From a virus (Duplodnaviria > Heunggongvirae > Uroviricota > Caudoviricetes), in IMG/VR virus record IMGVR_UViG_2713896904_000007, positions 1 through 9,561 of that record: a stretch of DNA of 9,561 nucleotides; one strand, written 5' to 3'. Shown piece by piece: positions 4,910-5,179 of this stretch (position 1 is the first letter of the stretch; each line of letters begins with the position of its first letter). The position numbers were made by a program, and so were the translations under genes. Under the pieces are notes generated by a model. That model was not told the DNA's origin and made no database searches. It worked only from the letters and a program-made list of their open reading frames with translations.

Positions 4910-5179
4910 TTACTTCATCCCGCCAATATTTTCCCACCTCCCGTCAGCACGCAGAATTTGCAGCGGTCTTACCACGCACTGTATCTGCTTTTTATCCGCA
5001 TCCAGTATCACCACCTGAGTGATTACCCTGGCCTGCTCCGGGATAATACCATTCTCATCTGACTCCAGGATGTCTGCCGGCCCCAGTCGCAGTTGTGCTG
5101 TAAGTGACTGCCCGTGTTCACGGCCATCATGCTTTCCGCAACCACACAGACGCTGCATAAGTTTTTTTAGTATGTTCAT
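4910..5179 (-). CDS. Small hypothetical protein (89 aa) translationally coupled to the stf-like gene; possible tail fiber accessory protein
   Basis: ATG at 5179-5177 lies 1 nt after the stf TGA (5183-5181), with AGGAG 6 nt upstream inside the stf 3' end. The ORF ends 15 nt before the terminator hairpin. The 133-aa version in the ORF track overlaps stf and is disfavoured. Product MNILKKLMQRLCGCGKHDGREHG...; no family recognised from memory. Confidence 0.55.
   Translation of the reverse strand: MNILKKLMQRLCGCGKHDGREHGQSLTAQLRLGPADILESDENGIIPEQARVITQVVILDADKKQIQCVVRPLQILRADGRWENIGGMK

Follow-up and report, generated by a model that had tools for sequence, protein, structure and literature searches.

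The sequence analysed here, referred to as the window, is a stretch of 9,561 nucleotides covering positions 1 to 9,561 of the IMG/VR virus record IMGVR_UViG_2713896904_000007 (Caudoviricetes). On its minus strand, the side tail fibre gene stf is followed immediately by a small gene for a protein of 89 amino acids, termed ORF89 in the following, and by a hairpin resembling an intrinsic terminator (Table 1). The prophage is of the long-tailed lambdoid kind, and its late region closes with this unit, next to type III effector genes. The start codon of ORF89 (ATG, 5179..5177) lies one nucleotide past the stf stop codon, such that the minus-strand junction reads ...ACAGGAGAA TGA C ATG AAC. Translated from 5179 down to 4910, the protein begins MNILKKLMQRLCGCGKHDGREHG / MNILKKLMQRLCGCGKHDGREHGQSLT. 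The hairpin begins 18 nt past the ORF89 stop, consists of CCGGAGU-CCG-ACUCCGG followed by UUUUUGUGUU and has a folding energy of -22.8 kcal/mol (z = -4.71 versus shuffled sequences). It was not picked up in a scan for consensus terminators and is kept 3' of the ORF in related loci, in phage 933W and in a divergent locus, L084. No promoter-like site was found upstream of ORF89, which therefore depends on late transcription. These direct readings agree with the initial annotation, according to which the ATG follows one nucleotide after the stf stop, AGGAG is embedded in the stf 3' end and ORF89 is the last gene ahead of the terminator. Its sequence details all proved correct, including a CGCG motif in the product, while the minus strand had gone unstated.

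Table 1 Features of the stf-ORF89 region (positions in the window).
Feature	Position	Strand	Remarks
Side tail fibre gene stf, EPclA type (PfN, coiled coil, collagen, PfC)	5181..6500	minus	
PfC of the fibre itself, Stf aa 365-428	5217..5408	minus	paralogue of ORF89
stf stop codon TGA and one spacer base	5183..5181 and 5180	minus	direct reading
Shine-Dalgarno sequence AGGAG	5186..5190	minus	inside the last stf codons, 6 nt ahead of the ATG
Gene for the 89-aa free-standing PfC protein (ORF89)	4910..5179	minus	direct ORF reading; stop codon TAA at 4910-4912
N-terminal segment of ORF89, aa 1-27	5099..5179	minus	predicted helix at about aa 3-12, Cys12-x-Cys14, variable linker HDGREHGQSLT
PfC domain of ORF89 (Pfam PF06820, Phage_fiber_C), aa 28-89	4913..5098	minus	E 2.1e-35, 121.3 bits
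Intrinsic-terminator-like hairpin and U-run	4863..4895 (stem 4875-4891)	minus	closes the stf-ORF89 unit

A scan of viral contigs yielded 80 loci with 81 copies of ORF89, every one of which is intact. The junction ACAGGAGAATGACATGAA is identical in 79 of the 81 copies and in 933W; in these 79, the same succession of Shine-Dalgarno sequence, stop and ATG stands behind a fibre gene ending ...GSDTGRTGE. Across the 66 distinct alleles, pN/pS amounts to 0.15 in the ORF89 frame, whereas the two alternative frames give 4.07 and 1.13. When the protein is divided into regions, the PfC part shows a value of 0.096 and the leader (residues 1-27) one of 0.34. ORF89 is a genuine late gene under strong purifying selection. 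The earlier proposal of a real gene in a layout coupled to stf, made dependent at the time on conservation in related prophages and on purifying selection in the reading frame, is thus borne out on both counts. A longer reading, 133 aa from the TTG at 5311, was considered and discarded as not the gene: with a pN/pS of 0.85 in the ORF frame, the added stretch behaves as nearly neutral sequence, and in 11 of 76 loci a stop codon leaves just 13 codons of it ahead of the ATG. The frame is open for 46 codons upstream in 63 of the 76 loci. L0122, the corresponding gene of 933W, is annotated with an upstream start similar to TTG 5311.

The product had been described as unrecognised. This description does not hold, since the match of ORF89 to PF06820 spans profile positions 1-64 of 64 and reaches 121.3 bits, the cut-off being 25, phrog_576 ("tail fiber protein") matches over residues 1-89 of 89 (E 1.9e-59), the PGAP name of the protein is "phage tail fiber C-terminal domain-containing protein", and a 92%-identical protein, ORF68 of prophage Sp5, has been discussed in the literature (PMC5155283). 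Membership in PF06820/PHROG 576 is supported alike by profile score, full-length similarity and the position after a fibre gene ending in PfC. ORF89 is 98% identical to P0001 (718 member sequences) and 94% identical to P0004 (1362 members). An NCBIfam search with ORF89 gave no match, and the best hit of a sequence search against the PDB had an E value of 2.6. Judged by sequence, ORF89 is a free-standing paralogue of the C-terminal PfC knob of Stf, equipped with a leader of 27 residues; its PfC domain shares 34% identical residues with Stf aa 366-427. The initial annotation had missed this relationship.

The leader is the less constrained part of the protein. Only L11 and K16 are near-invariant within residues 1-27, the linker is missing in P0127, the divergent family member encoded in L084, and the member from Citrobacter rodentium has only four residues ahead of the first cysteine. 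In an AlphaFold2 model, residues 3-12 are predicted, with low confidence, to form a helix, and confidence is also low for residues 11-26. The stretch of the predicted helix is amphipathic (hydrophobic moment 2.19) without a hydrophobic core, any such core being broken by K5, K6, Q9 and R10. Hydropathy analysis revealed no signal peptide, as had been stated before: the mean Kyte-Doolittle value of residues 1-13 is 0.19 compared with 2.19 for Lpp. On these grounds we also rejected a lipoprotein exclusion factor of the Cor or Llp type, which had come into consideration because of the lipobox-like sequence L-C-G-C. A conserved metal site formed by C12, C14, H17 and H22 was likewise dismissed, because C14 or H22 is replaced in some members and P0127 lacks the histidine stretch. 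The AlphaFold2 monomer was computed from an alignment of 11 sequences and is poor (pLDDT 59, pTM 0.36). The family has only four divergent lineages. A Foldseek search with it against the PDB returned nothing below E 0.5, and we therefore make no fold assignment.

Stf matches the Pfam families phage_tail_N (E 1.9e-69), Collagen (E 4.5e-18) and Phage_fiber_C (E 3.9e-34). Its true start is probably the ATG at 6494, resulting in a protein of 437 aa, and both the domain architecture and the MAVKIS start are as described in PMC3368898. The N-terminus of Stf matches the collar of Ur-lambda Stf (9e7m/9mgh, E 7e-53), so that the fibre probably attaches to the tail in the lambda manner. Tfa is unmentioned in the paper on the Ur-lambda structure. 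At the opposite end of the fibre, PfC has been established by experiment as a trimerization domain: EPclA, which has the same architecture as Stf, is a trimer, the isolated PfC domain trimerizes, PfC renucleates the collagen triple helix after melting, and recombinant EPclA trimerized in Escherichia coli without any helper (Ghosh et al. 2012, PMC3368898). The PfC of EPclA (ECs2717) belongs to the same Pfam domain as ORF89 and is 34% identical to it. Unlike the EPclA domain, ORF89 has no collagen stalk, carries a helical, cysteine-containing leader of 27 aa and is about five times more conserved.

The relationship between the free and the fibre-borne PfC domains is an old one. When the two known lineages are compared, identity reaches 64% for the free proteins and 41% for the PfC domains of the fibres, whereas every pairing of a free with a fibre PfC yields 30-34%. 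With orthologues closer to each other than paralogues, the duplication predates the split of the two lineages, and both copies have been kept. The two copies are not constrained to the same degree. Within the E. coli lineage, pN/pS over the last 75 stf codons, i.e., PfC and the tail following it, is 0.51, compared with 0.096 for the free PfC, a roughly five-fold difference.

In a collection of phages searched with tblastn, ORF89 was found in 296 records and the PfC of Stf also in 296, each record with a PfC-tipped fibre carrying ORF89 as well. Among 5426 complete E. coli genomes, ORF89 is present at 6118 places in 694 genomes, with a median of 9 per carrying genome, and the stf 3' end at 6155 places in 697 genomes. 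Long-tailed Stx1 and Stx2 phages carrying ORF89 include VT1-Sakai, 2851 and CP-1639. The short-tailed phages 933W (L0122) and VT2-Sakai (H0138, 92% identical to the protein of the window) have the gene with the same junction and the same terminator; here, it resides in the middle of an operon, after the fibre gene and with further late genes downstream, among them tail genes in 933W. L084 represents a third arrangement. It encodes a 212-aa non-collagen fibre that ends in PfC, followed by the 79-aa free PfC protein P0127, whose gene has its own AGGAGG and ATG, overlaps the fibre gene by 14 nt and is followed by a terminator. A prophage remnant in C. rodentium combines a truncated stf with an intact 78-aa copy, and in about ten of the 81 viral-contig copies the upstream stf reading frames are short and ORF89 is intact. 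Among 1.84 billion cluster representatives, 58 matches were obtained, nearly all of them fragments of the same Escherichia family; the sole divergent member of full length is P0127. P0142 and P0151, which are repeat proteins, matched weakly. Of 185,579 species genomes, only that of Escherichia albertii and a 725-bp contig labelled Xanthomonas pisi, probably a contaminant, were positive. The scans of cluster representatives and species genomes thus revealed no relatives beyond Escherichia and C. rodentium.

Taken together, ORF89 occurs in a ratio of about 1:1 with PfC-tipped fibres, whatever the remainder of the fibre or the type of tail. The initial annotation had suggested asking whether the ORF always follows fibres with collagen repeats; the link proved to be with the PfC domain instead, the fibre of L084 being devoid of collagen. 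It had also entertained an unrelated small cargo gene. That idea is refuted by the position of the gene among tail genes in the 933W operon and by its presence behind PfC-tipped fibres of three different architectures: ORF89 tracks PfC and not collagen, tail type or the effector locus.

Published data on orthologues inform about the role of the gene. ORF68 of Sp5, the VT2-Sakai prophage (ECs1229/H0138), L0122 of 933W and gp59 of phi24B are 89 aa long like ORF89, are 92-98% identical to it and share with it the position after a PfC-tipped fibre gene, the junction, the terminator hairpin and the PGAP name. With regard to Sp5 and 933W only the context differs, namely the end of the late region in the window and the middle of an operon in the short-tailed phages. 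Mondal et al. (2016) analysed deletion mutants for Sp5 genes of unknown function. While the fibre gene ORF67 proved essential, ORF68 was classed as a non-essential late gene and falls outside the set of genes essential for K-12 infection; the authors saw no frameshift signal and considered that ORF68 may serve as an intragenomic reservoir for fibre variation (PMC5155283). For phi24B, the supplement of a 2026 cryo-EM preprint contains a virion proteome. In the portion of this file covered here, two peptides unique to gp59 are listed, VITQVVILDADKK and ADGTWENIGGMK, with three spectra each. Compared with these six gp59 spectra, the fibre gp61 has approximately 2267 and the major capsid protein 20213. 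Per residue, gp59 would amount to about 2% of the fibre in purified virions, a rough figure because spectral counts are semi-quantitative. The authors of the preprint had searched hypothetical gp61-gp59 frameshift fusions, and the row concerned is labelled "Spike or just gp59?". Junction, linker or N-terminal gp59 peptides did not appear in the same portion of the file, and the main text of the preprint does not mention gp59. Since the peptides found are unique to gp59, the phi24B orthologue is translated and, as far as this portion of the supplement goes, present in trace amounts in purified virions. A preprint on CRISPR delivery to STEC and a review on tail spikes (PMC12309495) are silent on the ORF89 gene. 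In a microarray study on glyphosate, Z1484/ECs1229 is merely listed among the down-regulated probes.

The position of ORF89 invites comparison with tail fibre assembly proteins. Lambda Tfa, T4 gp38 and the Tfa proteins of Mu and P2 (PF02413, Caudo_TAP) are likewise encoded directly downstream of the fibre gene and tightly coupled to it, and by analogy a Tfa-like helper role at the C-terminal tip of the fibre is plausible for ORF89. Lambda Tfa has 194 residues, and ORF89 is less than half that size. Similarity to the Tfa family was not detected: a Pfam scan at E <= 0.1 returned PF06820 only, and neither the NCBIfam nor the PDB search mentioned above pointed to it. The initial annotation was therefore right in not calling ORF89 a Tfa homologue. 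ORF89 furthermore differs from Tfa in being a paralogue of its presumed substrate domain. Tfa is required for functional fibres; in the literature on other phages, by comparison, Sp5 ORF68 is non-essential where the fibre is essential, and EPclA trimerizes alone (PMC5155283, PMC3368898).

Our preferred reading, to which we give somewhat less than an even chance, is that ORF89 is a trimerizing, non-essential and sub-stoichiometric partner of the fibre's PfC knob. ORF89 would be made together with the fibre through translational coupling and, if it behaves like the PfC of the fibre, would trimerize via its own PfC domain. In the infected cell it may act transiently on the PfC knob of the fibre as a non-essential helper that either assists trimerization of the knob in register or keeps sticky knobs soluble and unaggregated, and it would then mostly be released. 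Such a protein would do a Tfa-like job while being unrelated to Tfa. The fibre chaperone that had been put forward earlier is possible only in this sense of a non-essential helper: EPclA trimerizes without ORF89 and the Sp5 orthologue is non-essential, so that any helper role is dispensable under laboratory conditions. Against a helper it can be argued that a conserved free copy next to a variable fibre PfC fits a conserved partner other than the fibre at least equally well. The trace signal in the covered part of the phi24B data could equally stem from loose binding that is lost during purification, or from contamination.

In principle, ORF89 could also stay on the particle. As a structural accessory of the fibre tip, a trimer of ORF89 would dock end-on onto the PfC knob and persist there as a distal cap or second adhesin. 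A comparable tip cap is provided by gp38 of T2-type phages and by Mu Tfa, the latter staying on the fibre tip. The strict pairing with PfC-tipped fibres and the coupled layout are compatible with this idea, a short N-terminal helix followed by a knob would, according to the model, look like a miniature fibre tip, strong conservation suits binding of a conserved target, and gp59 peptides were recovered from purified phi24B virions. Nevertheless, we regard it as unlikely. In the part of the proteome covered, six spectra as opposed to some 2267 for the fibre are far from stoichiometric even when corrected for length, the text of the phi24B paper passes over gp59, and the genes needed for K-12 infection do not include the Sp5 orthologue (PMC5155283). 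Moreover, one would expect greater variability in an adhesin than in the fibre tip, and ORF89 shows the reverse. In a related version, which we consider rather unlikely, ORF89 would form a detachable second tier: as a trimer, it would sit on the variable PfC knob of the fibre and expose a conserved surface for binding. This surface would be of importance solely on natural hosts or within the gut, such as in attachment to mucus or to cells bearing O-antigen. Such an arrangement would account for dispensability in K-12, for conservation stronger than that of the fibre tip and for traces left after purification and six months of storage.

A role independent of the fibre is improbable in our view. 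Here, the PfC fold would bind a conserved molecule of the host or of a competitor, with ORF89 acting as a decoy released upon lysis or as an exclusion factor, and the gene would merely hitch-hike behind stf. The much stronger conservation of ORF89 compared with the fibre PfC speaks for this, as do the intactness of ORF89 in 81 of 81 copies, including the ten or so with short stf frames, its survival in the C. rodentium remnant and the dispensability of the Sp5 orthologue for phage growth (PMC5155283). However, survival beside a disrupted stf is not significant, given that ORF89 is a five-fold smaller target. In the absence of a signal peptide the protein cannot reach the envelope on its own, a PADLOC search fitted ORF89 to no defence-system model, and the missing promoter-like site makes the gene reliant on late transcription. 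A shared function is the simpler explanation for the near 1:1 association with PfC fibres seen in three contexts.

The reservoir suggested for Sp5 ORF68 (PMC5155283), in which ORF89 would be a silent spare PfC cassette that recombines into stf and thereby varies the tip, is quite improbable. Rare chimeras seem to speak for it, P0063 combining collagen repeats with an ORF-type PfC and P0124 joining residues 1-40 of the ORF to the PfC tail of Stf. We did not accept them as evidence of cassette exchange, because both are rare and P0063 comes from the edge of a contig in a single short-read assembly. If the cassette were silent, its start codon, Shine-Dalgarno sequence and leader and pN/pS values of 0.10-0.34 (66 alleles) would not have been retained, and gp59 is translated in phi24B. 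Furthermore, the best 120 of 173 matches from a search of 5.8 billion proteins are all no longer than 131 aa; among the matches listed there is thus no full-length fibre with an ORF-type PfC. At 34% identity, the two copies are also a poor substrate for homologous exchange.

The least probable option is a frameshift fusion, in which a few ribosomes would shift to the +1 frame at the end of stf (GAA UGA C) and produce a fibre with a second PfC. It is true that, in the window as in L084, the reading frame of the ORF is shifted by +1 against that of the fibre gene, that the frame is open for 46 codons upstream in most loci, and that, going by the covered portion of the phi24B file, the level of gp59 is within the range of known programmed frameshifts and the authors' database held fusions of this kind. 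There is, however, no slippery site, as by standard pairing rules tRNA-Glu on GAA cannot re-pair on AAU. The site thus does not resemble a programmed +1 frameshift of the prfB type, and its geometry is not conserved in L084, where the ORF has its own Shine-Dalgarno sequence and ATG, a different overlap and an in-frame stop two codons before the ATG. Conservation of the Shine-Dalgarno sequence and ATG, the almost neutral evolution of the upstream extension and the lack of junction or linker peptides in the covered part of the phi24B proteome point in the same direction, and Mondal et al. had seen no frameshift signal either (PMC5155283).

Existing records already cover the gene, its domain and the fact that it can be dispensed with in the laboratory, and ORF89 is in this respect an ordinary known gene. 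To this, the present analysis adds the pairing of about 1:1 across three fibre architectures, the age of the duplication together with the roughly five-fold stronger constraint on the free copy, and peptide-level evidence for translation from the covered part of a published supplement. The gene is very abundant, and both Stx1 and Stx2 phages are among its carriers. If ORF89 does act as a helper or as a detachable tip, this would bear on the adsorption of Shiga-toxin phages to new hosts and on the spread of toxin genes, and those engineering collagen-like fibres would need to co-express it. The tryptic peptides of the allele in the window are LGPADILESDENGIIPEQAR, VITQVVILDADK(K), QIQCVVRPLQILR and WENIGGMK.

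The ORF finder places the start of stf at a GTG at 6500 (-), which yields a protein of 439 aa. Because the Pfam N-terminal domain of Stf begins at residue 3 of this reading and the published EHEC collagen-like fibre EPclA comprises 437 aa with the N-terminus MAVKIS (PMC3368898), the sequence makes the ATG at 6494 (-) the likely true start. At the opposite end of Stf, the trimerising PfC knob (Pfam PF06820) and an 11-aa tail (window 5184-5408 (-)) evolve fast at the protein level, with a pN/pS of 0.51 over the last 75 codons. Such rapid change would suit an exposed tip, possibly one that is receptor-binding or diversifying.

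Terminator-like hairpins are located on both sides of lom, at 7181-7204 (-) after J and at 6511-6532 (-) just before stf, and read-through would therefore be needed for transcription of stf and the ORF, i.e., the adjacent gene for the free-standing 89-aa PfC protein. A scan of the window found no promoter-like site ahead of stf. The read-through would presumably represent antiterminated late transcription. Past the terminator that ends the stf-ORF unit, a Pfam scan revealed a type III effector island (window 441-4700 (-)). At the related locus L084, comparable NleG and SopA-like genes lie downstream of the divergent pair of non-collagen PfC fibre and free PfC protein.

lom and the effector genes in the window
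Feature	Position	Strand	Evidence
lom	7153..6554	(-)	Ail_Lom, E 1.6e-120
NleG	4700..4110	(-)	PF06416, E 2e-36
SopA/NleL-like HECT E3 ligase, 790 aa, pentapeptide repeats	4059..1687	(-)	Pfam scan
NleC	1433..441	(-)	Peptidase_M85, E 9e-112; HEIIHH motif present

Two rare chimeric proteins were encountered among the relatives. In P0124, residues 1-40 of the ORF product are fused to the Stf PfC tail. In P0063 (L085 4-291), collagen repeats run into the PfC of the ORF, and its coding region lies right at one end of a short-read contig of 3.3 kb. Each may have arisen through a genuine deletion or rearrangement involving both copies of PfC, or may be an assembly artefact.

The Xanthomonas pisi DSM 18956 assembly includes a contig of 725 bp (L088, NZ_JPLE01000138.1) that carries a copy of the ORF with 92% identity and is probably E. 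coli prophage contamination. Citrobacter rodentium (FN543502.1, L083 4479-5237) harbors a decayed prophage remnant in which an internal deletion in stf joins the fibre N-terminal domain PfN to PfC, leaving 166 aa, and an intact free PfC gene (78 aa) follows. Where this locus appears in the draft assembly (L081), an NleG-domain gene is called downstream of the pair. Finally, a metagenomic protein of 993 aa (P0142) built from nine tandem repeats, which may be of the beta-sandwich type, gave a weak multi-stretch match to residues 34-64 of the ORF product (E 4e-7); this could be a hint at the PfC fold or spurious.
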